Positions 4,203 through 49,948 of a DNA stretch of 64,000 nucleotides are shown here, one piece after another (position 1 is the first letter of the stretch; each line of letters opens with the position of its first letter). The notes beneath the pieces are model-generated. The model ran no database searches and was not told the origin of the DNA. It worked only from the letters and a program-made list of their open reading frames with translations. A program made the translations under genes and the position numbers. This DNA comes from Candidatus Poribacteria bacterium (GTDB lineage Bacteria > Poribacteria > WGA-4E > WGA-3G). The stretch lies in contig OZ250160.1 in assembly GCA_965237835.1 (NCBI GenBank), positions 2,675,397-2,739,396 on the forward strand, given 5' to 3'.

Positions 4203-4650
4203 TTTTTAGAAGTTGTTGAAGCCCCTGCATAAGTGCTGAGAAACTATGTGGCATCTGTGTTTACACCTTATCCGCAAGCCGTCCTGTCCATTTGAAAAAC
4301 TGACGTTCAACGTCAGTTTTTAAGAGTTGCTGATGCCTCTGCATAAGTGCTGAGAAACTATGTGGCGTCTGTGTTTACACCTTATCCGCAAGCCGTCCTG
4401 TCCATTTGAAAAACTGACGTTCAACGTCAGTTTTTAAGAGTTGCTGATGCCTCTGCATAAGTGCTGAGAAACTATGTGGCATCTGTGTTTACACCTTATC
4501 CGCAAGCCGTCCTGTCCATTTGAAAAACTGACGTTCAACGTCAGTTTTTAAGAGTTGCTGATGCCTCTGCATAAGTGCTGAGAAACTATGTGGCGTCTGT
4601 GTTTACACCTTATCCGCAAGCCGTCCTGTCCATTTGAAAAACTGACGTTC
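4203..4650. repeat. Tandem array of about 3.9 copies of a 114-bp unit, each containing the perfect palindrome AAAAACTGACGTT-C-AACGTCAGTTTTT
   Basis: The anchor CATAAGTGCTGAG recurs at 4228, 4342, 4456 and 4570, exactly 114 bp apart. Copies alternate A/G at one position (GGCATCTG vs GGCGTCTG). Each palindrome is flanked by an A-run and a T-run, which is the geometry of a bidirectional intrinsic terminator. Confidence 0.9.
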
Positions 4651-7248: not shown

Positions 7249-8679
7249 TCATACTAATTTTGAGGCAATCTCATCTGCGGTTTGGATCAACCTTTTCTGT
7301 TCTTTGTCAAAAAGAGTCCGAACATCAAACCACAATTGATCATTTTCAATCCGACCAATGATAGGTGTACTACCGCGTCTGAAATGTTCCGACAGTTTTT
7401 CTACAGAAATCGTTAGTGGCGTAAGCACAACAGCAATGCTTGGCAATGTTTCAACAGGAAGTGACCCGCTACCAATTTCTGATTGCGCTTCAGATATCTC
7501 AATTGAGACTAAGTCCTCGAAAATTACATTGAGTCTGTTTGAAATGTGATTTGCTGTAGTATTTAATTCATCAATAGACCGAGTGTAACGCTGGAGCATT
7601 GGGAGTAGGTCAGTGATAGCGTCCTGATTGAGGTAAGTTTGTAAGGTAGCAGACAACGCAGCTATAGTAAGTTTATCAACACGTAATGCACGCATGAGTG
7701 GATTCTTTCTGATTTGATGGACCCACGCAGCTTTTCCAACAATAATGCCTGCCTGTGGACCACCAAGTAACTTGTCACCGCTAAAGGTGACGATGTCCAC
7801 TCCACAATCAATCCTATCCGCAACAACAGGTTCGTTAGGAAGACCATATTGTGATAGATCAATCAACGCACCACTGCCTAAATCCTCCATCGTTGGGATA
7901 CCGCGTTCGACACCGAGTTCAGTCAATTCGTGTATCTCAGGTGTTGTGGTAAAACCCACAATCTTATAATTGCTTGGATGCACCTTTAAGAGAAGTGCAG
8001 TGTTGTCGTTGATCGCTTCAGCATAATCCCTAAGATGTGTCCGATTAGTTGTACCAACTTCTCTCAGAATCGCTCCGCTTGCTTCCATTACGTCAGGTAT
8101 ACGAAAGGCACCGCCAATTTCAATTAACTCGCCGCGTGATACGATGACCTCTTTTCCTCGCGCAACGGTTTGCAGCGCAATTAATACCGCAGCAGCGTTG
8201 TTATTAACGACTGTTGACGCCTCACATCCTGTCAATTGTTGAAGTAGAGGTTCAGTAATCCGATCCCGATGTCCACGTTTGCCGGTCTCAAGATCATATT
8301 CAAGGTTGACATAATTTTGTGCTGCTTTTTGAAGACTTTTACACGCAGAAGGAGATAACAAGGAACGACCAAGGTTTGTATGTGTTACGGTTCCAGTTGC
8401 ATTAACAACGGTGCGGAGCGGGGGACGGGTTTTTTCAGTAATTTGCTGAAGTACTAATTCAGCATATTCAGATGGTTCGGGGAGTTTCAGATCTGCTTCT
8501 CCACCCAGAATTTGGTCTCGAATATCAGAAACAACTGATCGTAGTGCCTCAATAACAAGTGATCGACCATAAGAATCTTGCAGCTCATGTATCTCAGGCA
8601 GCGATAGAAGTTTTTCTATCGCTGGAAGTTGTCGGAGTAGGTTAGTGTTGTCGTTCTGTGTCTGAGTTTTTATTGTCAA
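7249..8679 (-). CDS. selA: L-seryl-tRNA(Sec) selenium transferase SelA
   Basis: 476 aa PLP-dependent enzyme. The FSGDKLLGGPQAGIIVGK region carries the PLP lysine. Length and overall collinearity with bacterial SelA also fit. Confidence 0.85.
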   Translation of the reverse strand: MTIKTQTQNDNTNLLRQLPAIEKLLSLPEIHELQDSYGRSLVIEALRSVVSDIRDQILGGEADLKLPEPSEYAELVLQQITEKTRPPLRTVVNATGTVTHTNLGRSLLSPSACKSLQKAAQNYVNLEYDLETGKRGHRDRITEPLLQQLTGCEASTVVNNNAAAVLIALQTVARGKEVIVSRGELIEIGGAFRIPDVMEASGAILREVGTTNRTHLRDYAEAINDNTALLLKVHPSNYKIVGFTTTPEIHELTELGVERGIPTMEDLGSGALIDLSQYGLPNEPVVADRIDCGVDIVTFSGDKLLGGPQAGIIVGKAAWVHQIRKNPLMRALRVDKLTIAALSATLQTYLNQDAITDLLPMLQRYTRSIDELNTTANHISNRLNVIFEDLVSIEISEAQSEIGSGSLPVETLPSIAVVLTPLTISVEKLSEHFRRGSTPIIGRIENDQLWFDVRTLFDKEQKRLIQTADEIASKLV

Positions 8680-8879
8680 CTTCTTATTCCAGATTAAGTT
8701 AATGATAGTATGTAGCTTAAAAATACAGAATTTATTTTATTTTGCATTGTGATGAATTTTATCAAATAAACCTTCAGATGTCAAATGAAAAGTTTTTGTC
8801 ACCTTATGCATCAATTTAGGATGTATCGCTCATCGGGTAGAACGAAGCAACCCATAGATGTCAATTTAGCGGTCCTCAA

Positions 8880-9375
8880 GGGCTGGTAGGTGCGGTTTCT
8901 AACCGCACCATAAGCGTCAATTTAAGGAAAGAACTCGTTCGTAGTCGCGCAATTCATTGCGCCTCTTACATTCAAAGAAAAGCTTAGCCCCAACGCGGTA
9001 GGTGCGGTTTGTAACCGCACCGGATTCTGTGGAGTATGTGTGAGATAACGGTTTCCGCGAACGACTCGGTGCGGTTACAAACCGCACCTACCAGCCCTGG
9101 AGGATCACTAAATTGACGCATAAGGTGCGGTTAGAAACCGCACCTACCAGCCCTGGGAAATCGGGATTACCGATTTAAATACTTAAACTTCATCTAACCG
9201 CACCGGACTTATCCAAGGAACGGCAAGCATGTTTTGTAATAGCTTAAATTGACGCTAATGGTGCGGTTAGAAACCGCACCTACCGGCCCTGGTGAAATCG
9301 GGTAGTGTGCGTTTTCTGTGTATGACTCGGTTCGGTTAGGAAACCGAACCTACCGTTCTTGGTTTCTTAAATTGA
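8880..9375. repeat. Cluster of at least 8 copies of a dispersed palindromic element (family 1): AAATTGACGC-nTAn-GGTGCGGTT-n3-AACCGCACC-TACC, in both orientations
   Basis: Copies are visible near 8885, 8995, 9065, 9105, 9190, 9245 and 9330 (the last is a GGTTCGGTT variant). The cluster fills the divergent selA/lepA intergenic region. Further copies lie at about 15330, 27661, 27811, 40921, 41221, 43971 and 63770. Confidence 0.85.
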
Positions 9376-9475
9376 CACCTATAGATTTCGCTTCGCTATA
9401 CCCGACGGACAATAATATTTGTGACAAAACTTCACACCCGCCAACAATCTTTTTATGGCAAATTGACCAAAATTG

Positions 9476-9484
9476 TGGTATACT
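9476..9484 (+). promoter_or_regulatory. Extended -10 promoter box TGgTATACT immediately upstream of lepA
   Basis: TG-n-TATACT at 9476-9484. The ATG is at 9494 and no Shine-Dalgarno lies between them, so the predicted transcript would be leaderless or near-leaderless. A TTGACC at 9463 is only 10 nt upstream and is not a canonically spaced -35. Confidence 0.3.
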
Positions 9485-9493
9485 ATTTACATC

Positions 9494-11299
9494 ATGTCAA
9501 CCAAACTTCAAAACATACGAAATTTCTGTATTTTAGGGCATATTGACCACGGAAAAAGTACACTTAGTGATCGTCTCTTAGAACATACAAACACACTCGC
9601 TGAGAGAGAAATGCGCGAACAAGTGCTTGATTTGATGGACTTAGAACGCGAACGTGGTATCACCATCAAAGCGACTGCTGTTAAACTCCAGTATCGTGCG
9701 GAAGATAAAAAACTCTACGAACTCAATTTGATAGACACCCCCGGACATGTTGATTTTACCTACGAAGTTTCGCGCAGCCTTGCAGCTTGTGAAGGTGCGA
9801 TTTTAATTGTTGATGCAGCACAAGGTGTTGAGGCACAAACCTTGGCAAACGCGTATCTTGCAATAGAAAATGAACTTGAGATAATACCCGTTATCAACAA
9901 AATTGACCTACCAGCGGCGCAGCCTGATGAAGTCAAACGCCAGATAGAGGAGGTAGTCGGCATCCCTGCTGATGAGGCACTCCTTGTAAGCGCAAAGGTT
10001 GGTATCGGTATACCTGCTATCTTAGAGGCTATTGTCAATCGAATTCCAGCACCTATTGGAGAATCTGATGCTCCTTTAAAAGCACTTGTGCTGGATTCTG
10101 TTTACAATAACTATCGTGGTATCATTATATACACCCGTATATTTGATGGAAGTGTTGCACCGGGAGACAAGATTCAACTGATGCAGACGAAACGCTCCTA
10201 TGAAATTGAAGAAGTTGGCATTTTTACACCACAGATGCAACCTACCACCGAACTCAAGACAGGGACAGTAGGCTATCTCATCGCAGGCATTCGGGACATT
10301 GACAACGCAAAAATTGGTGATACAATCACACAACATAAACATCCTACTGCTATACCTCTCCAAGGCTATCAAGAAATTAAGCCGCTTGTATTTAGCGGAC
10401 TCTATCCTGCAGATACAAACCAATTTCATGCGATGCGAGAAGCTCTTGATAAACTTCGACTAAACGATTCTTCTTTCACATTTGAACCGGAGACTTCTGT
10501 CGCGCTTGGTTTCGGTTTTCGGTGTGGATTTTTAGGTTTACTTCACATGGAGATTATACATGAACGTCTTGAACGCGAATTTGGATTATCGCTTATTCGC
10601 ACTGCCCCAAGTGTCATGTATCGGGTTTATCTTAAATCGGGCGAACATGTGTTAGTGGACAATCCTGCACATCTACCGGAAGTAATAAATATTGAACGAA
10701 TCGAGGAACCGTATGTCAATATTGATATAATTGTGCCGCGTGAATATATCGGAAATGCAATGGAACTTTGTCAGAAGCGGCGGGGTATATATAAGCGCAT
10801 GAATCAATTGGATGCGACACGGGTGCAACTGCTTTACGAACTTCCGCTGAGTGAAATGCTTACCGACTTTTTTCCGAAACTCAAATCGCTTACTCGCGGT
10901 TACGGTTCGCTGGAATACGATATTGGTGAATATAGAACAGAGAAACTTGTAAAGTTAGATGTACTCCTAAATGGTAAACCTGTAGATGCGCTATCAACCA
11001 TTTTACCACGCGATATGGCTGAAGTTCGTGGGAAGAATTTAGTTAGCAAATTGAAAAAATTGATACCTCGGCAGATGTTTGAGATTCCTATTCAAGCTGC
11101 CATAGGGAACAAGGTTGTCGCACGTGAGTCTGTCAGAGCACTACGGAAAAATGTAACTGCAAAATGTTACGGTGGGGATATAACACGAAAACGGAAATTG
11201 TTAGAAAGACAGAAGGAAGGTAAGAAGAGACTCAAACAGATTGGTAGTGTTGATGTTCCACAAGAAGCATTTACAGCAATGCTTGCAACAGATGAATAA
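9494..11299 (+). CDS. lepA: Elongation factor 4 (LepA)
   Basis: [24 protein letters not shown], with G-domain motifs DTPGHVDF and NKID. The full-length LepA-specific C-terminal domain is present. The track ORF begins with TTG at 9473; the in-frame ATG at 9494 gives the canonical N-terminus. Confidence 0.95.
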
Positions 11300-11311
11300 T
11301 TCAAATTTACA

Positions 11312-11425
11312 GGGCAAGCTTTCATGATTATGTGGTCAACAGCGGACCAACCTGCAGAGTTGTGGGAAATCTGGAAGGTGATAGGTGACATTCGTTTTGA
11401 TCGAATCGGCAAACTAATCCGATAA
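11312..11425 (+). pseudogene. Duplicated 3' fragment of a signal peptidase I gene (last about 37 codons only)
   Basis: Translates to GQAFMIMWSTADQPAELWEIWKVIGDIRFDRIGKLIR*. This closely parallels the C-terminus of the downstream lepB (QAFMVYWSFENPDAKIWEVWKSIGGIRFNRIGKLIR). The DNA is also highly similar, e.g. GATCGAATCGGCAAACTAATCCG against AATCGAATCGGTAAACTGATCCG. Confidence 0.55.
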
Positions 11426-11482
11426 ATTTTAGAGTATACGATTCTCCACAGTTGTAATGAATACCTAATTGTAAGAAAGGAA

Positions 11483-12292
11483 ATGCCGCTATCTATTGCG
11501 GTTTTCAAATTAATGACTACTGATATCCAATTATCGAAATGGCAGAGATTTCGAAAAACGGTCGCCTGGGAATATACCCAAGTAATTGTTGTTGCACTTA
11601 TCCTTGTTTTTGGGTTTATTCGCCCTTTTGTTGTTGAGGCATTCAAAATTCCATCCGGTTCAATGGAGGATACACTCCTAATCGGTGATAGGATTCTGGT
11701 ATGCAAGTTTATCTACGGATTCAAAATTCCCGGCACGGGTATTAGAGTCTTTGATTTTCATAAGCCTGCCCGAGGAGATGTTTTCGTTTTTATTCCACCA
11801 CATGAAGAGCAGCGAAATTTCATTAAACGTATTGTCGCAATAGAAGGGGATACAGTTCACACTGAAGGTAAAACACTTTATGTAAACGGTCAAGTCGTCA
11901 ACGATAACGGTTACGCCAAGTATGCGGGAAACCGTTTTGTCAGACGAAGTAATTTTCCCCCTTTCCGAAAAATGGAAGAATATATGAGGGGTAATGAACT
12001 ATATGATGATTACACCTTGACAGGTAGTCAGTATAAACGCAAATTCCCCGATGGTAAACCGTTTATTGTTCCAAAAGGATATGTCTTTGCAATGGGTGAT
12101 AACAGAGATCATAGTAGTGATAGTCGAACGTGGGGACCTGTAAATGTAGATAGTATCAAGGGGCAAGCCTTTATGGTTTATTGGTCTTTTGAGAATCCGG
12201 ATGCGAAAATATGGGAGGTTTGGAAATCAATAGGCGGTATACGATTCAATCGAATCGGTAAACTGATCCGTACACAAAATGGACTCAACTGA
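11483..12292 (+). CDS. lepB: Signal peptidase I (LepB)
   Basis: Catalytic boxes GSMEDTL (Ser), KRIVAIEGDTV (Lys) and GDNRDHSSDSRTWGPV are present, along with an N-terminal transmembrane segment. The true start may be the internal MTTDIQ at about 11513. Confidence 0.9.
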   Translation: MPLSIAVFKLMTTDIQLSKWQRFRKTVAWEYTQVIVVALILVFGFIRPFVVEAFKIPSGSMEDTLLIGDRILVCKFIYGFKIPGTGIRVFDFHKPARGDVFVFIPPHEEQRNFIKRIVAIEGDTVHTEGKTLYVNGQVVNDNGYAKYAGNRFVRRSNFPPFRKMEEYMRGNELYDDYTLTGSQYKRKFPDGKPFIVPKGYVFAMGDNRDHSSDSRTWGPVNVDSIKGQAFMVYWSFENPDAKIWEVWKSIGGIRFNRIGKLIRTQNGLN

Positions 12293-14226
12293 TGCACCAA
12301 GATAGACGACACCTTATCATCGGTACTGCCGGACATGTTGACCATGGCAAAACTGCACTGGTTGGCACGCTCACAGGCATTGAAACAGACAGACTCAAGG
12401 AGGAACGGGAACGCGGTTTATCCATTGAGTTAGGATTCGCTTATTTTGACCTGCCTGATAACTCACGTGCAGGGATTGTTGACGTACCAGGACACGAGAA
12501 ATTCATTCGCAACATGTTGTCTGGTGCTTATGGAATGGATATTGTCCTTTTTGTTGTTGATGCCAAAGAAGGGGTGCAAGAACAGACACTTGAACACTTA
12601 GCAATTTTAGATTTACTCGCCATCTCAAACGGCATACTTGTGATGACGAAGTCAGATTTAGCAACCCGTGAAGAATTGGAAGAAGCAACAGAAATGACGC
12701 AAGAAATGCTTGTTGGCACATCGCTTGAAGGCATTCCTTCGGTCAGTGTCTCATCTATCACTGGTGAAGGGATTGATACCTTAAAACAGATGATTGTTGA
12801 ACAAGTAGGCATTGTTACAGAGGCACAAGAACATGATGGAATTCCACGGTTGTATGTTGATCGTGTTTTCACAGTTCAAGGTTTTGGAGTCGTTGTTACA
12901 GGAACACTCATCGGCGGTTCAGTAAATAGAGATCAGAGGATGGTAATTTTACCACAAGGGGATGTTGTCAGAGTGCGAGGCATACAAGTACATAACGAAC
13001 CTGCGAATGTCGCACAAGCAGGACAACGCACCGCGTTAAATCTGTCTGGAACCACTGCTCATGGCATTCAGCGCGGTGATGTGCTATGTCCTATTGAGTT
13101 CTCAAATGTTACTGATAATATAAACGTATCGTTACAGGTATTATCCTCATTTCCGAGAATGCTTGAACATTGGGGACGTTTTCGCGTGTATCTCGGCACA
13201 CGTGAATTATTTTGTCGGTTGATTTTATTAGTTGACGAAGCAATTCTGCCCGGTGACAGAGTCCAAGTCCAACTACGGTTGGAGCAACCTATTTTGACCT
13301 TTAGAGGCGATAGAATCATTTTACGCGATTTCTCCGCACAACACACTGTCGGTGGCGGTGAAGTAATTAACCCATTCGCACCAAAACACAAACGTTTTAC
13401 CCAAGAAACCATTACCATTTTAGCAAAGTGGGAAGAAGCAGGCGACACGCAGGTGGTAAACGCAGTGCTTGAAAATAGTGAGACTCTCTGCGTAGAAGAA
13501 TCTTTCCTCTATTACTATATGCCGTATTCACAAGCCGAGGTTAGAAACATTTTGGACACCTTGGAATCTGAAGAAAAAATCGTGCGATGGGGTAAATCGG
13601 GCAGGACACCACTTATTTCTGATGCAGCACGCACAGCAGACGCTACAAACAAACTAACAGCAGCATTGTCAGGATTTCACGAAAAAGAACCACTCCTTTC
13701 AGGGCAGAATGCATCACAACTGTGCCGTGATCTTGCACTAAATGAGATAGATTTTGAGAAGATTACAGATCACCTAATTAAATCAAAGGAACTTGTGAAG
13801 GATGGGAATTTACTCCGATTGTCTTCACATGAAATAAAATTTTCTGAAGAGGAGTCAACTGCTAAAGAAACACTTGAAAAATTATTTTTGGAAGCAGGAA
13901 TCAACACACCCGGGCTTTCCGAACTGGATACATTGCTGCCAGAGTATACACCCCAAGTGATTGAATCCACGTTTTTTGCGTTATTGAATCTTGGACAGTT
14001 TATAAAAACAGCCGATAATTTCTTTATCCACAGAGAAATCTATGAAAAAACAAAAGAATTATTAACCAATTATCTTCAAAAAAATGATACAATATCGGTG
14101 GCAGAATTTCGGGAACTGGCGAAAACATCTCGAAAATATGCGGTACCGTTCCTTGAGTATTGTGACAGTCAAAATGTAACAATTCGAGATGGAAACGTCC
14201 GCAGATTGTCATCAAGGAAAAATTAA
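12292..14226 (+). CDS. selB: Selenocysteine-specific translation elongation factor SelB
   Basis: GTPase motifs GHVDHGKT, DVPGHEKF and TKSDL are present. An EF-Tu-like domain II and a long C-terminal winged-helix extension of about 270 aa, typical of the SECIS-binding region, follow. The ATG at 12292 overlaps the lepB TGA at 12290-12292 (TGATG). Confidence 0.9.
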   Translation: MHQDRRHLIIGTAGHVDHGKTALVGTLTGIETDRLKEERERGLSIELGFAYFDLPDNSRAGIVDVPGHEKFIRNMLSGAYGMDIVLFVVDAKEGVQEQTLEHLAILDLLAISNGILVMTKSDLATREELEEATEMTQEMLVGTSLEGIPSVSVSSITGEGIDTLKQMIVEQVGIVTEAQEHDGIPRLYVDRVFTVQGFGVVVTGTLIGGSVNRDQRMVILPQGDVVRVRGIQVHNEPANVAQAGQRTALNLSGTTAHGIQRGDVLCPIEFSNVTDNINVSLQVLSSFPRMLEHWGRFRVYLGTRELFCRLILLVDEAILPGDRVQVQLRLEQPILTFRGDRIILRDFSAQHTVGGGEVINPFAPKHKRFTQETITILAKWEEAGDTQVVNAVLENSETLCVEESFLYYYMPYSQAEVRNILDTLESEEKIVRWGKSGRTPLISDAARTADATNKLTAALSGFHEKEPLLSGQNASQLCRDLALNEIDFEKITDHLIKSKELVKDGNLLRLSSHEIKFSEEESTAKETLEKLFLEAGINTPGLSELDTLLPEYTPQVIESTFFALLNLGQFIKTADNFFIHREIYEKTKELLTNYLQKNDTISVAEFRELAKTSRKYAVPFLEYCDSQNVTIRDGNVRRLSSRKN

Positions 14227-14254
14227 AAACTATCTAAATTCGCTTCTACTTTCT

Positions 14255-14348
14255 GGGGGAGGATAGGGTCCGGTGGCCCTACCGGTCTTCAAAACCGGCT
14301 TGTCCATGCAAGTGGATAGGTGGGTTCGACTCCCACCCTCTCCCGCCA
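14255..14348 (+). tRNA. selC: tRNA-Sec (selC), anticodon UCA, with CCA encoded
   Basis: GGGGGAGG-AT-AGGGTC-CGGT-GGCCCT-A-CCGGT-CTTCAAA-ACCGG-(22-nt variable arm)-GTGGG-TTCGACT-CCCAC-CCTCTCCC-G-CCA. It has an 8-bp acceptor stem, a 6-bp D stem with a 4-nt loop, a 5-bp T stem and a long variable arm. This is the bacterial 8/5 tRNA-Sec architecture. Confidence 0.9.
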
Positions 14349-24424: not shown

Positions 24425-24736
24425 CAAAATAGAGTTTGCCCACAAGGTGCTTCGTCAACTATAACAAGTGTCGTCGATCATCAATGTTCCCGACTGTCTG
24501 TTGCGTGGCTAAGAGTTCACCTCGGTCATTAATGACGAGATGGAGTTTGAACCCATAGAACCATCCGATTAAAGGTGCAAGACCCACTTTGATGGTAAGC
24601 AACAAGTATTGTCATCACCTCACTTTTATGAAGTTTTGAGAGACGATTACGCTTTTTAGATGCTTCGGTATCCTATGACATACTCCCCGAGCTAAAGCAA
24701 CGGGGTTTCTTTCACTGATTTATCAGTGTTCTCTGC

Positions 24737-25275
24737 TCAGGCAGAGCGACAGAGGTGTTGATTGTATCTAACACCAAAGGGGGATGCCAGGTCCCCGACT
24801 ACTGGGTTATTTATTAACCCAGATACTTTGTTGAATATATTTATAGCACCGACACCATCACGATGATATCTAAAATCGCATTGTTTGCAGTGATAGTTTC
24901 GGTTCTTCGGTTTCCTTCTATCACACCTTAAAAGACGGGGCTTTCAAACCGAATATTTGGTAAATGTTGGAAAACCTTCTGTTTTTCATAGTCAATATTA
25001 CAAAAGTTGTATAGTACACAGGGACAAATCAACTATGATTTGTCCCTGTGTACTATGTGTCAACTTAAGGATATATTCTTGTAGGTGAGAAACCTTATAG
25101 GATCAAAATTATTAGTTTTTCCTTTGTCTAAACCAGGATTCACAGGGTGATAGACCCCGCCCTAAAGGGCGAGGCTTCCGCAAGTTTATGCGAAAGCATT
25201 TGTGGTATCAACAAGGGTTGCTTGCTATGCAAGTCTAACACTCTCTCCTCCAAAGGTTGCTACCCCAACCTTGAA
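24737..25275 (-). pseudogene. tnpB: Decayed IS200/IS605-family tnpB (RuvC-like / zinc-finger C-terminal part) remnant
   Basis: The minus-strand translation gives ...CDRRKPKNRNYHCKQCDFRYHRDGVGAINIFNKVSGL. This matches the TnpB C-terminal zinc finger plus RD-x-NAA-x-NI motif. Upstream, in another frame, GWGSNLWRRE resembles the TnpB GWGEFRRQLEYK box. Multiple stops and frameshifts interrupt it, and the N-terminal half is missing. Confidence 0.5.
25011..25056. repeat. Perfect 46-bp palindrome (21-bp stem, 4-nt loop): ATAGTACACAGGGACAAATCA-ACTA-TGATTTGTCCCTGTGTACTAT
   Basis: Read directly from the sequence. It lies inside the tnpB remnant, where it interrupts a VD..YT(SQ)-like stretch. Confidence 0.9.
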
Positions 25276-25764: not shown

Positions 25765-27465
25765 TTAAGGGGTAAAAACCTCAAGAGCTTTTGCGGTAAT
25801 ACAACCCGCAATCGTACTCGCCACTTTTCCTTGAAAATCTGCTCTAATTATTGCTACTGCTTCTTCTATAGCCAGGTTTTCCTGACGGAATTTCCGCCAG
25901 AGATCGATACTCAGTCCATAAAGATAGTCATCAATAAGGGCTTCATCTCCAGCATCAAGCCTGGCTAAAAAGGCTGCAGATTCGGCTTCGTATTCACTTA
26001 TACACTGTGCAGAAAGTGCAGTATAGGTAGCATTGCTTGTGCCTGATTCATTTTTAAGTATAGATATCCGAAAATTGTTTGATGGATCAACTTCCATTGC
26101 CACTATCTTATCGCTTAAATAGTTTGCCATTCCACCATAATGTTCATCAATATACTTTTTTGCGATCAAGGTTGATGTAGGCAAATTACCTCGATCAGAT
26201 GTAGTACTCATATCTATAGTTATAAGAAATATCTGATCCAAAATAGTAAACGTTATTTCAGCATCTATTGCCACATAAGACCTTACAATTGACACGGTGA
26301 GAGTGATTGGACCTGGACTTCCCGGCGTTTTTGATGGTGTAAAAGTAAATTCAACGTAGCCGCTTGAATCTGCTCTTGTTGGGGACATGCCCGGTGTAGT
26401 CATATTATTGATATAGCCTATTCCAGATGGAACATTAATCGCCATTCTTGCACCTGGATACGTTTGCAGTATGACTAAATTCGATGTTTCACCAACTCGA
26501 ACAGTCTGATTGTTCCCAGAAACAACTTGCACATTACCGGTTACCTGTTGCTGTTGCTGTTGCGCCGCAATAAGCGGTTCTGATTCTTCCTCAACAAAAG
26601 TAAGCGTTGATTGTTGCAGCGAGTTAGGATCCTCCTGTTCAGTCTGTGTATCCTGCTGTTGCTGCGAGTTGGGATCCTCCTGTTCAGTCTGTGTATCCTG
26701 CTGTTGCTGCGAGTTGGGATCCTCCTGTTCAGTCTGTGTATCCTGCTGTTGCTGCGAGTTGGGATCCTCCTGTTCAGTCTGTGTATCCTGCTGTTGCTGC
26801 GAGTTAGGATCCTCCTGTTCAGTCTGTGTATCCCACTGTTGTTGCGAGTTAGGATCCTGCTGTTCAGTCTGTGTATTCTGCTGTTCAGTCTGAGTATCCT
26901 GCTGTTTAGTCTGAGTATCCTGCTGTTTAGTCTGAGTATCCTGCTGTTTAGTCTGAGTATTCTGCTGTTCAGTCTGAGTATTCTGCTGTTCAGTCTGAGT
27001 ATTCTTCTGTTTAGTCTGAGTATCCTGCTGTTCAGTCTGAGTATTCTTCTGTTTAGTCTGAGTATCCTGCTGTTCAGTCTGAGTATTCTGCTGTCCAGTC
27101 TGAGTATTCTGCTGTCCAGTCTGAGTATTCTGCTGTTCAGTCTGAGTATTCTGCTGTTCAGTTTGTGTATTCTGCTGTTCAGTTTGTGTATTCTGCTGTC
27201 CAGTCTGTATATTCTGCTGTCCAGTCTGTGCAGGCTGTGTGTTAGGATCCGGTTTACCATCGTGAGAGACAACTTCTACAACATTAGCTAATTTACCTCC
27301 GACAAGGATAATATTGCCGGATTCATCTTTCTGATAGACAACTTCTGCATCGTCAAGCACCTCAGCATTTATCACCTTATCAACACTCAAAAGCTGAGTG
27401 AAAGACTTATCACAACTCATGATTAAACATAGTAACAATATCCACAAAACATTGATTTTATACAT
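25765..27465 (-). CDS. Putative lipoprotein with Gln/Thr-rich tandem-repeat region (QTEQQNT heptads and QQQDTQTEQEDPNSQ 15-mers) and a roughly 300-aa non-repetitive C-terminal domain
   Basis: Signal/lipobox MYKINVLWILLLCLIMSC. About 16 heptad repeats and about 5.5 15-aa repeats follow. No recognisable catalytic motifs. Confidence 0.7.
   Translation of the reverse strand: MYKINVLWILLLCLIMSCDKSFTQLLSVDKVINAEVLDDAEVVYQKDESGNIILVGGKLANVVEVVSHDGKPDPNTQPAQTGQQNIQTGQQNTQTEQQNTQTEQQNTQTEQQNTQTGQQNTQTGQQNTQTEQQDTQTKQKNTQTEQQDTQTKQKNTQTEQQNTQTEQQNTQTKQQDTQTKQQDTQTKQQDTQTEQQNTQTEQQDPNSQQQWDTQTEQEDPNSQQQQDTQTEQEDPNSQQQQDTQTEQEDPNSQQQQDTQTEQEDPNSQQQQDTQTEQEDPNSLQQSTLTFVEEESEPLIAAQQQQQQVTGNVQVVSGNNQTVRVGETSNLVILQTYPGARMAINVPSGIGYINNMTTPGMSPTRADSSGYVEFTFTPSKTPGSPGPITLTVSIVRSYVAIDAEITFTILDQIFLITIDMSTTSDRGNLPTSTLIAKKYIDEHYGGMANYLSDKIVAMEVDPSNNFRISILKNESGTSNATYTALSAQCISEYEAESAAFLARLDAGDEALIDDYLYGLSIDLWRKFRQENLAIEEAVAIIRADFQGKVASTIAGCITAKALEVFTP
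26620..27225. repeat. Intragenic tandem DNA repeats: about 5.5 x 45 bp (26620-26868) followed by about 16 x 21 bp (26869-27225)
   Basis: The 21-bp unit CTGTTCAGTCTGAGTATTCTG recurs with C/T variants. The 45-bp unit is GTTGCTGCGAGTTGGGATCCTCCTGTTCAGTCTGTGTATCCTGCT. The overlapping antisense ORFs at 26510-27291 are artefacts of the repeats. Confidence 0.9.
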
Positions 27466-27899
27466 TAATATCTCCTTATTGATATATGCATTGCCTTTGT
27501 TCAGTTTTTAAGACGATACATAATTAAACGACTTTTGCTTATTAACATTTTTCTATCTGTCTCTGAATCAGTATATTGCAAAGGAGCAGATAGTTAATTA
27601 ACTTCACAATAGACATAAATGTAATTTGAGTTTTTAATTCGGCAATTCTTATTTTCTCCAGTCCCGGTAGGTGCGGTTTCCTAACTGCATCGGGTTTATA
27701 CGAGTTGACAGTCAACAATCGGTAAGGCTTCTTTGTGTGAGTGCATTGTAAGCGCGATATATAGGCGTTGAAAGCACTTTCCACAAGAGCATATATTCCT
27801 TCTTGACAATACGGTGCGGTTAGGCGGTTAGAAAACCGCACCTACCGCATTTTGTTGACGGTGTAATGCTTTTCTTAAATTGACGACTCGGTGCGGAAT

Positions 27900-28516: not shown

Positions 28517-31500
28517 TTGCAAACCATGGACTCATTAAAAGATATTATTGAACTTTGTCACCAACGACGTGAAAAACCGTTACAACAACGGAGAACAGTA
28601 GTATCGCACGCGATGTACAACAAATATTCTCCGCATCAATACACAGTCTACTGTGCACATAAGTGTCCAATACTCCTCTCTGACTTTGAACAGGCGGATA
28701 TATCCTTCATGCCAATAGGACATGCACCTAACCATGACTGCGGACCGTGGGATTTTGGTGGCGAACGCTTTTTGAAACGGCAACGTATGATAGACTGGCA
28801 AATGGTTCAATGGGACACGTCTTGGGGAGTACAGATATATACTGGCATTCCTTCCGAACACAACGGTGCCAGATGGAACGACCTCAATTTTACGTATGAA
28901 GTTATTTGTTCCGAGCAGGAAGCAGTTTATGCGTGTATTGAAGGCCTGATCAACGCTGCTGTAAATCCACTATTGACGATCACAGAGTCCGGGGGATTAC
29001 GTTTTTCTTGCAGAATACCGAACTACCTCCATCCAAATACGGATGAGTCAAGGTATTTTATCCATAAGCATACACCGACAGCGGAGAATCCGCATGAACG
29101 ACAGGTATACCTTGAAATTATTGGAGAAAAAGGGTTCAGTTGTTGGGATGCGCGCTATGATATTATCCTTGGAAATTTATTAGATCCACCCGTTATTTCC
29201 GACAATGCGATTTTTGCACATGTTGATACCCTTCGTGATGAACTCCACTCACCTGCATCAACGCAAGAAGAGTTGCTTAATCCTGTTCTACAAACTGTAA
29301 CTGTTACATCAGTCTCTCTGGGTTCTTCCAATCTTGATCTTGCAAAAGCCGCACTGCTGAAACGCGGATTTTCTTATGTGCGACAAGATAATGGGAGACA
29401 CTGTTGGTGCCGTACAAGTGAAGATGCAGACGACGTACATGTATCGCTATGGGAGGATGAAGGTACTGTATGGTTACGTTCCTCTACTCCTAAGGCAGGA
29501 CTTCCTACAGAAGCAACCCACATCACAGAAATTTGGGTTGACACCGGCATTGTTCCTCCGGTAACAGAAAAATTAAAGGCTGTGCGGGAAGGGAAACTCA
29601 GTCCATTAGCTATAAAACGACCAAAACCGGTTCTGCAGAGTTCCGAAAAAACAGAGATAGTTTATGAAACTCTCGAAGAAAATGCAAACAAGATACAGAG
29701 TATATTTGATCGGGATGCGCGTATCCTTGGAATCTTCGCAAATAAGGGAATACGAAGAAGTCATGAAATAGATACATTTCTTCCCAAAAATGGAGAGATC
29801 ATCTTAAATGTCAGTGGCATTGGAAGTGCAAAAGATTTTGAAAGATACTATCAAAGACACGACGTATCTTCGCATCAAATCTGGAAACCTCGAATATATC
29901 AATGGGAACAAGTGCAAGATATACCTATTGAGGTGCGGATGGCAAATCCATTTCAACACGGAAATATGTGTGAGGATGCAGAACGGTGCACCGCTCTTCA
30001 AAAAAAAGGCGGGGAACCACTCAAAAGTATCTGTCCTCAATGCCAAGTCTATACGGAATGCAATGAGAGAGGATATTTAGCACAACATAAGAATTTTCAA
30101 CATACAAAGATAAAAATAATACCAAGCCAAGAACCGTGTTATAACCCAGCTTACGTAGAATTTATGGACAGTATACTTGAACAACCAAAACCAACCGATA
30201 ATGAGAAATCAGGTGAAAGATCGGTAAATAGAATCTGTATCGTTGATGAAGTAAGAACATTCGGACTATTTCCTAAGATTGAAATTTCAATAAACATGTT
30301 AGAGGAGTGGAATGTGTTTTGGCAAGGTAGTGTCTTAGGAAACTTTGCCAAAGCATTGTTAAATGTCTTACAGCTCTGGAATGAAAAGGTTGGTATTGCT
30401 ACCAAACGGGTTCGCGCAACAGTCTACGCGTTTAGAAGGCATGAAGAAGAACTTATTACGCAGATGTGCAGCCTCAATATTAATGCGAAGGTAGTGCCAC
30501 AAGTTGTCGTTGATGCGGAAACAGGAATTGAGTTAGCACATTTTACCGTTCTTTTTGACCGTGGAGTATCCGCGTATATTCCACTTGACAAGGACGCCGC
30601 AAAGATACTTATGGAAAAAAGTCTACCAGTTATTGAACTTAGCGATTTTGCGGTTAACGAAGATATGAAAATCCCAATGCGTATGGAACAAGCGATACAG
30701 TTAGGTATTTTAGATGTGGCAACCGTTGAGAATATTGATACTTTCCCAACAATTTGTTGGAATCCAAACTGGACGACTTGGCACCAACTCAAGTGTTTTT
30801 TTGACTACTACATCCGGGATGAAGACGCACCGATGAAGTGGGATCATGAACTATTAGCATTCCATATACCACCTGTACTGCATCCGAGTGTCAGTCGTAT
30901 ATTATTCATTTCATCTACCCTCTCTGAGCAACACCTAAAGGTTGCGTTTCCAAAAGAGGAAATCGAAACCATTAACATCAAACCAACAGTGTGGTGTCAA
31001 GGGAATCAAATTTTTCAGCTTCGAACAGGCCTCTACGACACCCAAAATATATATGAATATGATACCAATAGAGAGCAAATACGACCAACAAAGATGGGAA
31101 GGCGATTTATCTACGGTATACGGTCAGAAATTGAGAGAGATGCAAACATTAAGCACGCGATTATAACTCATAAAAAACTTACAAACTGGATGGTAGATAT
31201 ATTAGATAAGAAAAACGTCTGTTTTATTAAATCTTTCAGGGCAATAGAAGCGTTAGATAAAGAGTTGGAAGAAACAGATGTCCTTTGGATAATTAGCACA
31301 CCAAACATCGGGCATAGCACAATGTGGCGGAAGGCTCAGATTTTGTTTGGAAATGACGCGGAACCCTTGTCTTACGAGATTGATACAGAGATATTATCCT
31401 ATAAAGATAAAAGGATTCAATGTGTTTACGAAGAAGAAATTTTTGGCATCCTTTCTTCAGCAATTGGAAGCGCGAAGTTGACACACTATACAAACAAAAA

Positions 31501-31936
31501 GATTGTGTTAGGAACGAGTTTTCCACTGCCTGGTGTGACCGAAAGACCTGAAACACTATTATTCGACTGGGAAGATTTGGAAGTTGCTGGAGGGTTAGAC
31601 AAACTCCCTGAAGCGATCGCAACACGTCAACGTTTTGAGGCAGAAAAGGCTACGATCACTGCTGAAACCAGTAGAACAGAGGTAGAACGTATCTTGGGAT
31701 GCTCTTCAAGACAGGCGAACCGAGTCTTGAGCAAACTTCGGGGTGGTAACATTCCCCGAGTTCTCTTCCGTGAGCAGATAATTTCTATTCTCGCTGATGG
31801 TGCGAAAAAAACGTCAGAAATTGCGGAAGCGATTGAAGGACATCCCAAAGCAGTAAATTCTGAACTTACACGACTTGTTGTAGCAGGTGATATTGTCAAA
31901 GTCCGGCGAGGAATGTATGCACTTCCAACATCTTAA
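28517..31936 (+). CDS. Large orphan protein (1139 aa) with Cys/His-rich N-terminal region, central Cys-cluster (CEDAERC...CPQCQVYTEC) and C-terminal tandem winged-helix DNA-binding-like domains. Function unknown.
   Basis: No P-loop. An SGGLRF segment is faintly reminiscent of a primase-polymerase motif but is not convincing. The C-terminus TSRTEVERILGCSSRQANRVLSKL...TSEIAEAIEGHPKAVNSELTRLVVAGDIVKVRRGMYAL looks like two wHTH modules. Confidence 0.6.
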   Translation: MQTMDSLKDIIELCHQRREKPLQQRRTVVSHAMYNKYSPHQYTVYCAHKCPILLSDFEQADISFMPIGHAPNHDCGPWDFGGERFLKRQRMIDWQMVQWDTSWGVQIYTGIPSEHNGARWNDLNFTYEVICSEQEAVYACIEGLINAAVNPLLTITESGGLRFSCRIPNYLHPNTDESRYFIHKHTPTAENPHERQVYLEIIGEKGFSCWDARYDIILGNLLDPPVISDNAIFAHVDTLRDELHSPASTQEELLNPVLQTVTVTSVSLGSSNLDLAKAALLKRGFSYVRQDNGRHCWCRTSEDADDVHVSLWEDEGTVWLRSSTPKAGLPTEATHITEIWVDTGIVPPVTEKLKAVREGKLSPLAIKRPKPVLQSSEKTEIVYETLEENANKIQSIFDRDARILGIFANKGIRRSHEIDTFLPKNGEIILNVSGIGSAKDFERYYQRHDVSSHQIWKPRIYQWEQVQDIPIEVRMANPFQHGNMCEDAERCTALQKKGGEPLKSICPQCQVYTECNERGYLAQHKNFQHTKIKIIPSQEPCYNPAYVEFMDSILEQPKPTDNEKSGERSVNRICIVDEVRTFGLFPKIEISINMLEEWNVFWQGSVLGNFAKALLNVLQLWNEKVGIATKRVRATVYAFRRHEEELITQMCSLNINAKVVPQVVVDAETGIELAHFTVLFDRGVSAYIPLDKDAAKILMEKSLPVIELSDFAVNEDMKIPMRMEQAIQLGILDVATVENIDTFPTICWNPNWTTWHQLKCFFDYYIRDEDAPMKWDHELLAFHIPPVLHPSVSRILFISSTLSEQHLKVAFPKEEIETINIKPTVWCQGNQIFQLRTGLYDTQNIYEYDTNREQIRPTKMGRRFIYGIRSEIERDANIKHAIITHKKLTNWMVDILDKKNVCFIKSFRAIEALDKELEETDVLWIISTPNIGHSTMWRKAQILFGNDAEPLSYEIDTEILSYKDKRIQCVYEEEIFGILSSAIGSAKLTHYTNKKIVLGTSFPLPGVTERPETLLFDWEDLEVAGGLDKLPEAIATRQRFEAEKATITAETSRTEVERILGCSSRQANRVLSKLRGGNIPRVLFREQIISILADGAKKTSEIAEAIEGHPKAVNSELTRLVVAGDIVKVRRGMYALPTS

Positions 31937-40984: not shown

Positions 40985-41205
40985 CGTCTGATACACCTTT
41001 CGCCTCCCCGAGGCTTTGGTAAATCACATCTTAGCACCAGCGGTGCGACAGGTATATAGAAAACGGTGTCCAACAGTCTCTTGAACCCCAGCGGGGTGAC
41101 AGGTGTCTGACAACATGTGCCCATATACACCTTTCGCCCCGCTGGGGCTTGAGTTTGGTATGGATCGTGGTCTATACACATTCCGCCCCGCTGGGGCTAA
41201 GATAT
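40985..41205. repeat. Iteron-like cluster: 5 copies of about 25-bp motif TATACACCTTTCGCCCCGCTGGGGCT in alternating orientation, about 45-bp spacing
   Basis: Copies at about 40990 (+), 41035 (-), 41093 (-), 41135 (+) and 41177 (+). Family-1 palindromic elements flank the cluster at 40921-40972 and 41221-41270. The three minus-strand ORFs at 40827-41209 are likely artefacts. Confidence 0.7.
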
Positions 41206-41589
41206 CCAAATATAGGTTTATTTCCTTAAATTGACGCCTATGGTGCGGTTAGGAAACCGCACCTACCATAACCTACAAAACAATTATAGATTTCACTATA
41301 CGACCTAAACTTGCAGTTAAACTCATAAAATGAATATTCTTAAAACTAAATAACCCTGTTTATGTTAAAATAAACTTGCTACATTCAGAATGTTACTGTA
41401 TAATCATATATGGACTTACATTATATGATATTTAATTATTTATATTAAGTTCTGACATCAATATTAGTATATATAACGTAGGTTCAATATTTGATTCCGA
41501 GCGTCTGTCCAAAAGATAAAAAGAGTTGGGTTTCACTCATTGAATCTTTTTATCAAACTCACGTTTTAATGCAACAAGGCTAGAAAAAT

Positions 41590-44278: not shown

Positions 44279-45163
44279 ATGGATACTCTTAACGATTTCA
44301 GCTTCAAGCAAAAAAAATATATCCCTATCTTTCCAAAAGCGAGTGGAAAACCGACCATTTACATTGAAGGTTATCCGTTTGAGGACGACGAACCTATGGC
44401 AGCAACCGAATTTCACGGTGAACAGATCAACATTTTTTACGACCAATTCTCACGCTATTTTGCAATTGATGAACACATTCACATCGGTATTGACAACTTT
44501 ATTTATTATCGCGAAGGTGACATTACCAAGTTTGTTGCCCCTGATGTTTACGTTGTGTTTGGTGTTGATAAATATCCACTGCGTCGCAGTTTTTATACGT
44601 GGTCAGAAGGTGCGGTACCTGTTGCTGTTTTTGAATTTCTATCCGATGCGACAGCGAATCAGGATCGGCATGAAAAAGTCGGCGTGTATCTGACTGATAT
44701 AGGTGTTCAAGAATACTTTATTCATCAACCTGAAATGAAAAAACCTGCGGAATTTCGTGGCTGGCAGCGAAGCCCTTCTGGTAACATTATTGAGATTGTG
44801 CCGGATGCGCGGGGTGGTATGTTTAGCGAAGCGTTAAATCTCTGGTTTCGGTGGGAGGACGATCAAACGACGCACGTTAGGTTATTACGGCCGTCCCTGC
44901 CTGATGGCACTCCCATAACAACTTCTATGGAAGAAGAACATCTACGAAAGCAAGAACAACAACTGCGAGAGCAAGAACAACATCTACGAGAGCAAGAACA
45001 ACAACTGCGAGAGGCGGCAGAAGTGATGGCAGCAGAAGAAACTGTGAGGCGGCAGGAAGCAGAAGCACTTGCCAAACAGGAAGTTGAGCGGCGACAGGAG
45101 TTAGAAGTTGAATTAGAACGACTCCGGACACAAATCGCTAACCGCGAAAATGGAACCCCTTGA
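44279..45163 (+). CDS. Uma2-family (DUF820) putative restriction-endonuclease-like protein with C-terminal coiled-coil tail
   Basis: The PD-(D/E)XK-like Uma2 core ...IDEHIHIGIDNFIYY...VAPDVYVVFGV...EFLSD is present. The C-terminus is EQQLREQEQHLREQEQQLRE heptad-like. Confidence 0.75.
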   Translation: MDTLNDFSFKQKKYIPIFPKASGKPTIYIEGYPFEDDEPMAATEFHGEQINIFYDQFSRYFAIDEHIHIGIDNFIYYREGDITKFVAPDVYVVFGVDKYPLRRSFYTWSEGAVPVAVFEFLSDATANQDRHEKVGVYLTDIGVQEYFIHQPEMKKPAEFRGWQRSPSGNIIEIVPDARGGMFSEALNLWFRWEDDQTTHVRLLRPSLPDGTPITTSMEEEHLRKQEQQLREQEQHLREQEQQLREAAEVMAAEETVRRQEAEALAKQEVERRQELEVELERLRTQIANRENGTP

Positions 45164-48480: not shown

Positions 48481-48633
48481 CTACCGAAATCTTATAACCG
48501 TTCCACGGCCGCCCCGCACACTGGAAGTTTTAATATTAATCTCGACGTTGTACTCATTAGCAAGCCGCTGAATTAATGCTATGAGAAAATCTTCATGGGC
48601 AACATCTTCAACAAATAGATTGATATTACGCAT
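48481..48633 (-). CDS. Truncated TOPRIM-like (DUF4276/DUF4435-type) partner of the upstream AAA ATPase, 50 aa
   Basis: MRNINLFVEDVAHEDFLIALIQRLANEY fits the hhhVEG/D..E..Fh..hh N-terminal pattern of TOPRIM-like partner proteins. Its ATG overlaps the ATPase stop (ATGCGTAA). The ORF stops after 50 aa, only 27 nt from the convergent pepP stop. The track's longer 67-aa version, starting at 48684, lies inside the ATPase gene. Confidence 0.35.
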   Translation of the reverse strand: MRNINLFVEDVAHEDFLIALIQRLANEYNVEINIKTSSVRGGRGTVIRFR

Positions 48634-49948
48634 CAAAGTCCCCCCGTATGATACGTTCAGAAGGAGACAAAGCATCTTCGTCATCCAATGCTACCTCAAT
48701 ATCTGACTTTTTCCACAGGGGACCCGTATTCATCATCTTAAAAGGCGCGATTTCTGTGTTTCCGTTAACCTTGCGACAAACATATAACGATTCGAGAGGA
48801 ATGAGGTCGGGCAAAAGTGATGAATGTGTTGTTACAATGAATTGGATATCTTGGAGAATCATGTGAGTTTCCAAAAAGCGAGCAATGCGACGAATCCTGC
48901 GAGGGTGAATCCCATTTTCCGGTTCTTCAAATCCTATCAACGCAGGAGGTTCTGCGGCTCCAACGAGTGCTAAAAGCCCTAAAATTCGGAGTGTGCCCTC
49001 CGATAAGACGCGGGCAGAAATGCGCTTTTCACCTTCACGAATATCCAATTCAACTTCACCTAATTCATTTACACTAACATTAATTCCCGTTATAGATGGA
49101 ATCATGGTATGGAGTGATTTCTCAATAGATTCAAATTGTCGCTTATTACGAGCTTGCAAGGTATTGAGAAAGGCTGCGAGATCCTCTCCCATTGATCCAA
49201 TATCGTGAACTGCCTTGACCGGATTTGGAAGCCGCATTTGTTCTCTTGGTTCAAGATAGAAAGTAAGCCAGTTCGTTAACTCTCGCTGCATTGCAGTCAA
49301 ATGCGGATAGTGCGGCGGATAGTGCGACCTTGAAAGGATACTAAAGTCAAGATAACGCTCATAATAGAGTGGATGCGCCTGTCCCTCCATCCGCAGATGC
49401 AACCGATTTCCCCTTCGCTCTAAAAAAGGTTTCCTGTTTCGTTTTGGTTGACCCTCAGCACTGAGTGCAGCGAGATATTCATCTGATACACATATAATTC
49501 CTTGTTTAGGATGCATTTCAACCTGAATACGGTATCGCAGATATTTCTCGCTCACAGGTAGACGCCGATCTGAAACAGACTTATTTACACTTTTTGTATC
49601 CTTTTTCGTTGTTTCCCTAATCTCTTGAATACGCTTATTAACACTTTCCATAACAGCATCAGAAAGTTGCACATCTACCTCTATAATGAACGACACACTT
49701 TCTTTTTCGAGGAGGCTCTTAATGCCTTCATCTCCAAAAGTGAACGATTCCAGCGGATGTCCTCGGTACGGAGGGTCAAATGCTTCTTCCAAAGTTTGGC
49801 AGGTCGCCATCCGAGACAGAAGTTGCAGTGCATCAAGGAAATTGCTCTTTCCCGAAGCGTTAGGACCAACGAGCACAGAAAGAGGTTCGAGATTTAGTTC
49901 AAGATCCCTTAGTGATTTGTAACCCTGAATTTTGATTCGTTTCAGCAT
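48626..49948 (-). CDS. ABC-type (SMC/RecF-like) AAA ATPase of the OLD/PARIS AriA/DUF4276-partner class
   Basis: Walker A GPNASGKSN lies near the N-terminus. The Q-loop, Walker B LIGFEEPE and H-loop TTHS are present. There is no fused nuclease domain. Confidence 0.75.
   Translation of the reverse strand: MLKRIKIQGYKSLRDLELNLEPLSVLVGPNASGKSNFLDALQLLSRMATCQTLEEAFDPPYRGHPLESFTFGDEGIKSLLEKESVSFIIEVDVQLSDAVMESVNKRIQEIRETTKKDTKSVNKSVSDRRLPVSEKYLRYRIQVEMHPKQGIICVSDEYLAALSAEGQPKRNRKPFLERRGNRLHLRMEGQAHPLYYERYLDFSILSRSHYPPHYPHLTAMQRELTNWLTFYLEPREQMRLPNPVKAVHDIGSMGEDLAAFLNTLQARNKRQFESIEKSLHTMIPSITGINVSVNELGEVELDIREGEKRISARVLSEGTLRILGLLALVGAAEPPALIGFEEPENGIHPRRIRRIARFLETHMILQDIQFIVTTHSSLLPDLIPLESLYVCRKVNGNTEIAPFKMMNTGPLWKKSDIEVALDDEDALSPSERIIRGDFDA

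Follow-up and report, generated by a model that had tools for sequence, protein, structure and literature searches.

The window analysed here, a 64,000-nucleotide (64-kb) stretch of the Candidatus Poribacteria contig OZ250160.1, carries on its minus strand a gene for a predicted 566-residue lipoprotein precursor, in which an array of 21-bp and 45-bp units separates a conserved N-terminal module (N-module) from the C-terminal domains. From sequence comparison, we held with moderate confidence that the product would be an envelope lipoprotein, most likely surface-exposed, bearing a disordered stalk of variable length and evolving under diversifying or relaxed selection. The features of the gene were as follows.

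25765..27465, minus strand: lipoprotein coding sequence, ATG start, 566 aa plus stop (open reading frame list; homologues share its N- and C-terminal parts in frame)
27472..27477, minus strand: Shine-Dalgarno sequence AAGGAG, 7 nt before the lipoprotein ATG (direct sequence reading)
27412..27465, minus strand: signal peptide with lipobox, MYKINVLWILLLCLIMS followed by C, residues 1-18, Cys18 predicted to be lipidated, Asp at +2
27232..27411, minus strand: conserved non-repetitive N-module, residues 19-78, of which 19-75 make up the 57 aa between lipobox and repeats, motif V.Y[QE]KDE.GNI.L (alignment with L002, L009 and P0062)
26875..27231, minus strand: 17 x 21-bp repeats, heptads TQT[E/G/K]Q[Q/K][N/D], residues 79-197 (codon-level parsing)
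26605..26874, minus strand: 6 x 45-bp repeats encoding TQTEQEDPNSQQQQD, residues 198-287, last unit degenerate (codon-level parsing)
26545..26604, minus strand: acidic linker and poly-Gln (Gln6), LTFVEEESEPLIAAQQQQQQ, residues 288-307
26236..26544, minus strand: putative Big_1-like immunoglobulin (Ig)-like beta-sandwich domain, residues 308-410 (BLASTP; structure model at low confidence)
25768..26235, minus strand: orphan C-terminal domain, residues 411-566, short beta elements then a helical bundle

The lipoprotein gene and its product

An identical 566-aa protein was on record in a database contig of 5.93 Mb. Other open reading frames (ORFs) crossing the repeats, one of 243 aa on the gene's own strand and two (226 and 127 aa) on the plus strand, lacked conserved flanks and were set aside as by-products of stop-free repeats. 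The first-pass annotation, made from the letters of the window, had counted about 16 units of 21 bp and about 5.5 units of 45 bp; parsing gave 17 and 6, each within one unit of that estimate, and the units were near-identical and in frame, as described. Its placement of the repeats between a lipoprotein signal and a C-terminal domain also stood, with the correction that they do not follow the signal directly, as the conserved N-module intervenes. The C-terminal domain was present, not as the single globular domain of 300 aa first proposed, but as 259 aa in two parts.

Residues 1-18, MYKINVLWILLLCLIMSC, fit the PROSITE lipoprotein pattern PS51257, with Lys3 in the n-region, the stretch WILLLCLIMSC as the matched lipobox and Cys18 at its end. 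This pattern requires a positive n-region, an uncharged hydrophobic h-region, the lipobox [LIVMFWSTAG](2)-[LIVMFYSTAGCQ]-[AGS]-C and a Cys at position 15-35. It was found in all four divergent homologues compared (the window protein, L002, L009 and P0062), with the Cys at position 18 or 19, and the leader was almost invariant across their alignment. The original call of a lipoprotein was therefore upheld, both here and in relatives only 32-38% identical, and assignment as the precursor of a lipoprotein with a type II signal peptide is supported by the sequence pattern. The N-module that follows had no match in a Pfam search.

Residues 308-410 shared 42% identity (BLASTP E 7e-9) with a segment, scored as Big_1 by Pfam, of an autotransporter from Lysobacteraceae (L003), and both opened on the motif VVSGNNQT..VG. 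The Pfam Big_1 profile (PF02369) gave no match, either to the whole protein at E <=1 or to residues 308-410 alone at E <=10. An AlphaFold2 (AF2) model built from the seven available sequences showed beta structure and then a helical bundle, at a mean predicted local distance difference test (pLDDT) score of 60.8 that reached 80-90 only for the helices; residues 308-410 were all-beta at a pLDDT of only 50-63. A Foldseek search of this model against PDB and BFVD returned nothing significant, the Ig-like matches being non-significant. Residues 411-566 had no match in Pfam, NCBIfam, PHROGs, PADLOC or PDB sequences, and a PDB sequence profile search gave 0 matches at E <=10. By these searches, the N-module and the C-terminal head would both be unannotated domains without a relative in Pfam or PDB. 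The mature protein has no cysteines other than Cys488 and Cys555. Both were invariant in the family (P0005 and P0006 included), a pattern that suggests a disulfide and, with it, a location outside the cytoplasm.

The repeat array and its variation among alleles

Tandem Repeats Finder detected two arrays, one of period 21 (26629-27230, score 568) and one of period 45 (26612-26969, 92% matches, score 492); together they formed the largest array in the window, bar one intergenic 114-bp repeat. Every unit was in frame. The first two 21-bp units were degenerate, the three central 45-bp units were identical, and the 45-bp unit corresponded to the 21-bp unit plus a 24-bp insert. At the protein level, 73% of the 209 residues of the array (79-287) were Gln, Thr, Asn or Ser; 35 were acidic, 7 basic and no more than 4 hydrophobic. 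The mean scaled hydropathy of the array, 0.21 against a charge-hydropathy order/disorder boundary of 0.46, lies far inside the disordered region, and on this ground the array is expected to be disordered.

The strict 7-residue period with its TQT motif, together with a low-scoring similarity to the antifreeze beta-roll of grasses in Pfam (PF21300, LbR_Ice_bind; E 0.0012, 19.4 bits), could instead point to structured repeats, forming either a polar, TxT-faced beta-solenoid of the ice-binding kind or a rigid heptad coiled-coil rod. We regarded this as very improbable. The PF21300 score fell under the curated cut-off of 30 bits, and the few hydrophobic residues provide neither a solenoid core nor coiled-coil a/d positions, the heptad TQTEQQN having no hydrophobic position at all. 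In addition, the distant relative L009 has Pro-rich units in the array's place, which are incapable of either fold. The similarities to TopJ, a YSIRK lipase, SMC and the antifreeze beta-roll found in Pfam, NCBIfam, PADLOC and PHROGs were sub-threshold and compositional only, and these candidates were rejected. An on/off contingency locus, which would call for a unit that is not a multiple of 3 or for a promoter repeat, was also rejected: units of 21 and 45 bp keep the frame, no homopolymer or promoter repeat was visible in the 5' region of the gene, and both frameshifts found among the alleles arose from a truncated unit or a 7-bp deletion, not from unit slippage.

Repeats were observed elsewhere in the window as well. 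Four copies of EDTEPTES, specified by 24-bp units at 57011-57105, close the LptC/A-like ORF, and the ORF at 44279-45163 contains about four in-frame 21-bp units at 44931-45013 with heptads of the EQQLREQ type. The intergenic 114-bp repeat (3.9 copies, 97% identical, 4203-4650) lies between genes for a UvrD/PD-(D/E)XK helicase-nuclease and an ABC ATPase; its complete units finish with the hairpin CTGACGTTCAACGTCAG and then TTTTT.

As judged from database searches, the lipoprotein family is new, very small and very rare. When 1.84 billion representatives were searched exhaustively with HMMER, 7 matches were obtained, 4 of which were true relatives. Two JGI metagenome scans and a plasmid search gave no relative, a GTDB genome scan gave no close relative and only the Big_1 domain of an unrelated autotransporter, and the 64-kb window held no paralogue. 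Cluster look-ups and contig retrieval recovered six further alleles from ENA long-read assemblies, all of them at the same chromosomal position as the window gene and with non-repeat protein 93-97% identical to it. The arrays of the seven alleles were as follows.

L001: 321 bp, 8 x 21 bp and 3 x 45 bp, one 45-bp unit with an 18-bp insert
L002: 405 bp, 15 x 21 bp and 2 x 45 bp
Window: 627 bp, 17 x 21 bp and 6 x 45 bp
L005: 708 bp, 23 x 21 bp and 5 x 45 bp
L008: 828 bp, 33 x 21 bp and 3 x 45 bp
L007: 908 bp, 32 x 21 bp and 5 x 45 bp (one 3 bp short), plus a truncated 14-bp unit (frameshift)
L006: 939 bp, 34 x 21 bp and 5 x 45 bp

Stalk length ranged from 107 to 313 residues across these alleles, with the frame kept unless a unit was truncated. 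The first-pass annotation had held that repeats this perfect are prone to expand and contract, and had proposed that long reads be inspected for variation in repeat number. In related long-read assemblies, array length differed in every allele, with seven alleles carrying seven different arrays (321-939 bp), two of them in one sample. Neither finding that it had named as telling against its view, an invariant repeat number or a missing signal peptide, was encountered, as the arrays vary and the lipobox pattern is present. L005 and L008 came from the same sample, yet differed in both arrays and flanks. L006 lies on a circular 5.96-Mb contig at 228x and L007 on a contig at 122x, so that their arrays are not low-coverage artefacts. 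Unit variants were common to several alleles, in mosaic order, and in L005, L006 and L008 heptad blocks lay between or after the 15-mers, as expected from unequal recombination besides slippage. In L002, the (CAACAG)n run had gained one unit, followed by a 7-bp deletion just after the poly-Gln.

More distant relatives retained the architecture around different spacers. L009, from a Tara sample, was 32% identical in its C-terminal part; it encodes MYKIINVLWILLLFVIMGC-D... and an N-module as in the window protein. Its repeats are unrelated, consisting of a 48-bp unit, three copies of TNNQPKD, at least six of DTTTPD, a gap in the assembly and four copies of TPPPTT, after which come the Ig-like and head domains. 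P0062/L004, 34-38% identical, kept the leader and N-module, a short non-repetitive linker and the head domain, without the Ig domain. The lipobox, the N-module and the head, Cys pair included, were kept across the family; two of the three lineages also had a long repetitive spacer, acidic and rich in Thr, that is free to vary in sequence. Since the architecture is kept with unrelated repeats in L009, the conserved property would be a hydrophilic, Thr-rich repetitive spacer and not its sequence. On this comparison, the array behaves as a spacer, not as a binding surface. The spacer stalk that had been suggested was borne out by the non-homologous repeats of this relative and by the position of the array deep in the disordered charge-hydropathy region. 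Within the L009 repeat region, a run of Ns was present at about 2130-2230 of the Tara short-read scaffold, which indicates that such arrays are lost or collapsed in short-read assemblies and that the family is probably under-sampled.

Selection, genomic surroundings and cellular location

Synonymous and nonsynonymous changes in the non-repeat parts, small in number throughout, stood at 1:19 between the window and L008, 2.5:37.5 between the window and L002 (a contig at 3x coverage), and 0.5:25.5 between L002 and L006. Binomial p values for these three pairs were 0.001-0.04, the neutral expectation being that nonsynonymous sites make up 0.77 of all sites. Flanking genes in the same genomes had a synonymous divergence (dS) of 0.05-0.11 and a ratio of nonsynonymous to synonymous divergence (dN/dS) of 0.04-0.26, and the contrast with the lipoprotein gene was significant (Fisher p 0.002 to 1e-5). 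Purifying selection of the usual strength on the lipoprotein gene is excluded. Diversifying selection on the non-repeat parts is the explanation that we favoured for these counts. Divergence along the region was mosaic, at 0-4.6% per 500 bp.

A dN/dS not below 1 would also be expected of a decaying, lineage-specific orphan, in which selection has gone, repeat number drifts, and neutral changes and frameshifts pile up. The frameshifts in two of the seven alleles (the 14-bp unit of L007, at 122x, and the 7-bp deletion of L002) fit such decay, as does the setting of the gene among transposase relics, with insertion sequence (IS) insertions or rearrangements flanking the L002, L005 and L008 copies. 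We nevertheless judged decay to be unlikely. Five alleles keep intact frames of 566-670 aa, and relatives as distant as 32% identity still have the architecture, the lipobox, the motif of the N-module and the Cys pair. Moreover, the nonsynonymous excess in the L002 comparisons goes beyond neutral (p 0.001-0.03), which drift by itself does not give.

The flanks of the gene were as initially described, with a TnpB zinc-ribbon relic on one side and, at 27-29 kb, a GC content of 0.355-0.377. The 1.3-kb gap downstream of the gene held two mobile-element relics at 24459-24943 (minus strand), namely a TnpB zinc-ribbon/RuvC-III fragment, YHCKQCDFRYHRDGVGAINIF, at about 24739-24943 (minus strand) and an adjoining DDE transposase fragment, GWFYGFKLHLVINDRGELL. 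In L002 the gene was flanked by an IS4-type transposase, and in L008 by IS630- and IS3-like genes. A palindrome resembling repetitive extragenic palindromic (REP) elements, GGTGCGGTTAGGAAACCGCACC(TAC), often adjoining TTAAATTGAC, occurred at six intergenic sites (9335, 15355, 27667, 27827, 41248 and 43974; 0 expected by chance), and the copies at 27667 and 27827 lay just upstream of the lipoprotein gene. Positions 1-163 of L005 matched window 41101-41263, so that the region upstream of the lipoprotein gene (27824) was joined to ~41263 at a REP-like copy; this junction implies a rearrangement of ~13.4 kb between REP-like copies, in a contig of only 1x coverage. A recently transferred island spanning the gene was considered, and is weakened by the mosaic divergence across the whole region.

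Elsewhere in the window, a 1139-aa ORF at 28517-31936 (plus strand), whose only similarity was a weak AbiEi-type winged helix at its extreme C-terminus, was unusually conserved between strains relative to the surrounding genes (99.5% nucleotide identity, dS 0.012-0.014). A selenocysteine machinery cluster occupied 7249-14348; it comprised selA, selB and tRNA-Sec (14255-14348), with selA and selB separated by lepA and a gene for signal peptidase I. An AAA_21/AAA_15 ATPase at 48626-49948 (minus strand) matched HEC-01A, a candidate defence family in PADLOC (E 2e-60).

An lpxL-like acyltransferase gene, lptC/A-like and lptB genes, and then rpoN and hpf were also present in the window; by the lpxL-like, lptC/A-like and lptB genes, the host is a diderm with lipopolysaccharide. 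The lipoprotein would be exported by Sec, acylated on Cys18 and freed of its signal peptide, as its signal sequence predicts. The mature protein would then consist of four parts: a membrane-adjacent conserved module; a stalk of ~210 residues, acidic, Gln/Thr-rich and probably intrinsically disordered; an Ig-like domain; and an orphan head that is probably disulfide-bonded. The 21-bp and 45-bp units would be gained, lost and reordered, presumably through slippage during replication and through unequal recombination. The stalk may act as a spacer whatever its sequence, perhaps with O-glycosylated Thr residues, which sets the distance to which the head projects, and the head and N-module would be the functional, ligand-contacting parts. 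The protein would most likely lie at the cell surface, visible to phages, grazers or a host, and such exposure would account for the hypervariable length, the excess of amino-acid-changing substitutions and the occasional knock-out alleles.

Several points weigh against this surface-exposed reading. An Asp or Glu at +2 is kept in all four divergent homologues, and surface exposure is not implied by the sequence; in Enterobacteriaceae such as E. coli, Asp at +2 signifies inner-membrane retention. Two of the seven alleles (L007 and L002) are frameshifted. Most pairs without L002 do not reject neutrality, and relaxed constraint is for that reason a live alternative to positive selection. Clusters of adjacent changes at 435-438 (AKKY/LRSV) and 558-559 (AK/RV), which contribute some of the nonsynonymous excess, may each be one event. 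In addition, the structure model, with its mean pLDDT of 60.8, is weak, and there is no ligand to suggest.

The conserved residue at +2 would fit the main alternative, a periplasmic tether, kept in the inner membrane or attached to the periplasmic side of the outer membrane, where the stalk would serve Lol sorting or let the Ig-like and head domains extend across the peptidoglycan to a partner, as for RcsF, NlpD, Pal or LpoB. A linker kept independent of its sequence, as in the disordered linkers of E. coli, points the same way. We considered such a tether a possible but distinctly less probable explanation, and ranked it below surface exposure because a threefold range of stalk length in ~97-98% identical strains, amino-acid divergence and knock-out alleles would be unusual for a housekeeping tether. 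The array also follows a conserved N-module, not the lipidated Cys directly as in E. coli, and the family is very rare, at 7 matches among 1.84 billion representatives.

A further elaboration of the surface reading, which we put forward only tentatively and as rather improbable, is that the protein serves as an interface determinant not described before, in a marine diderm that is uncultured and may live with a host, and varies in two layers, one being stalk length, readjusted in each strain by recombination of the repeats, and the other the positively selected N-module and head. Were this so, the variation could provide escape from phages, grazers or host recognition, with the frameshifted alleles representing escape by loss, and the Thr-rich stalk would point to a mucin-like, O-glycosylated shield, none being known in this lineage.

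Significance and comparison with known systems

Variable-number tandem repeats in surface and envelope proteins are well known, and the conceptual gain is therefore modest. Our findings indicated that long-read metagenomes resolve stalk-length polymorphism at the strain level, even between two populations in one sample, and that short-read assemblies break within the array, as the Ns of the Tara scaffold showed. The locus offers a concrete marker for following strains of this uncultured lineage, and the protein is a candidate recognition molecule for phages, predators or hosts. A solved structure or a binding partner for the N-module or head would be new information.

Size-variable surface lipoproteins are familiar from mycoplasmas, as Vlp in M. 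hyorhinis, Vsa in M. pulmonis and Vsp/Vpma in M. bovis and M. agalactiae. These proteins combine a type II signal peptide and conserved leader with in-frame repeats of strain- or clone-variable number and an exposed, hydrophilic, low-complexity region. Their repeats make up the C-terminal bulk, they are encoded by multigene families, and homopolymers in the promoter or site-specific inversion turn their expression on or off. The protein described here is likewise a lipoprotein with in-frame tandem repeats of strain-variable number. It differs in lacking sequence similarity to them (Pfam, NCBIfam), in being encoded by a single-copy gene without a paralogue in the window, in having a diderm host, in placing its repeats as an internal stalk between the N-module and the folded C-terminal domains, and in showing no promoter repeat or homopolymer in its 5' region. 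Examples of the mycoplasma proteins are described in PMC3720590 and PMC10535464.

About half of the outer-membrane lipoproteins of E. coli have disordered N-terminal linkers that are required for sorting, and in these linkers length and disorder matter, not sequence (10.1101/2021.01.05.425367). The protein resembles RcsF, NlpD, Pal and LpoB of E. coli in being a diderm lipoprotein with a probably disordered segment between its lipid anchor and folded domain. The linkers of those four are tens of residues long, non-repetitive, stable within the species and placed directly after the Cys, whereas the stalk here spans 107-313 residues, is encoded by near-identical DNA repeats, is hypervariable and is preceded by a conserved module.

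Residues 308-410 align, at the 42% identity given above, with one Big_1 domain (PF02369), a type found in invasin/intimin-type adhesins and autotransporters. Unlike in those proteins, there is one putative domain of this type and not an array, and the predicted anchor is a lipid and not a beta-barrel. Repetitive hydrophilic spacers, often glycosylated, are also found in the Gram-positive alpha C/Rib proteins, in the Ser-Asp repeat stalks of Clf/Sdr proteins and in the Pro/Thr linkers of secreted glycoside hydrolases. The array shares with these stalks its near-identical DNA units, its strain-variable unit number and its position as a spacer before a putative binding domain, and L009 has true Pro/Thr repeats. 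The anchor there is sortase/LPXTG or none, whereas here it would be a lipid, with Gln/Thr/Glu heptads and another type of envelope. By sequence, the protein belongs to none of the families compared. By analogy, it would come closest in behaviour to the mycoplasma size-variable lipoproteins and the Gram-positive polymorphic stalks, and in architecture to the disordered-linker lipoproteins of diderms.

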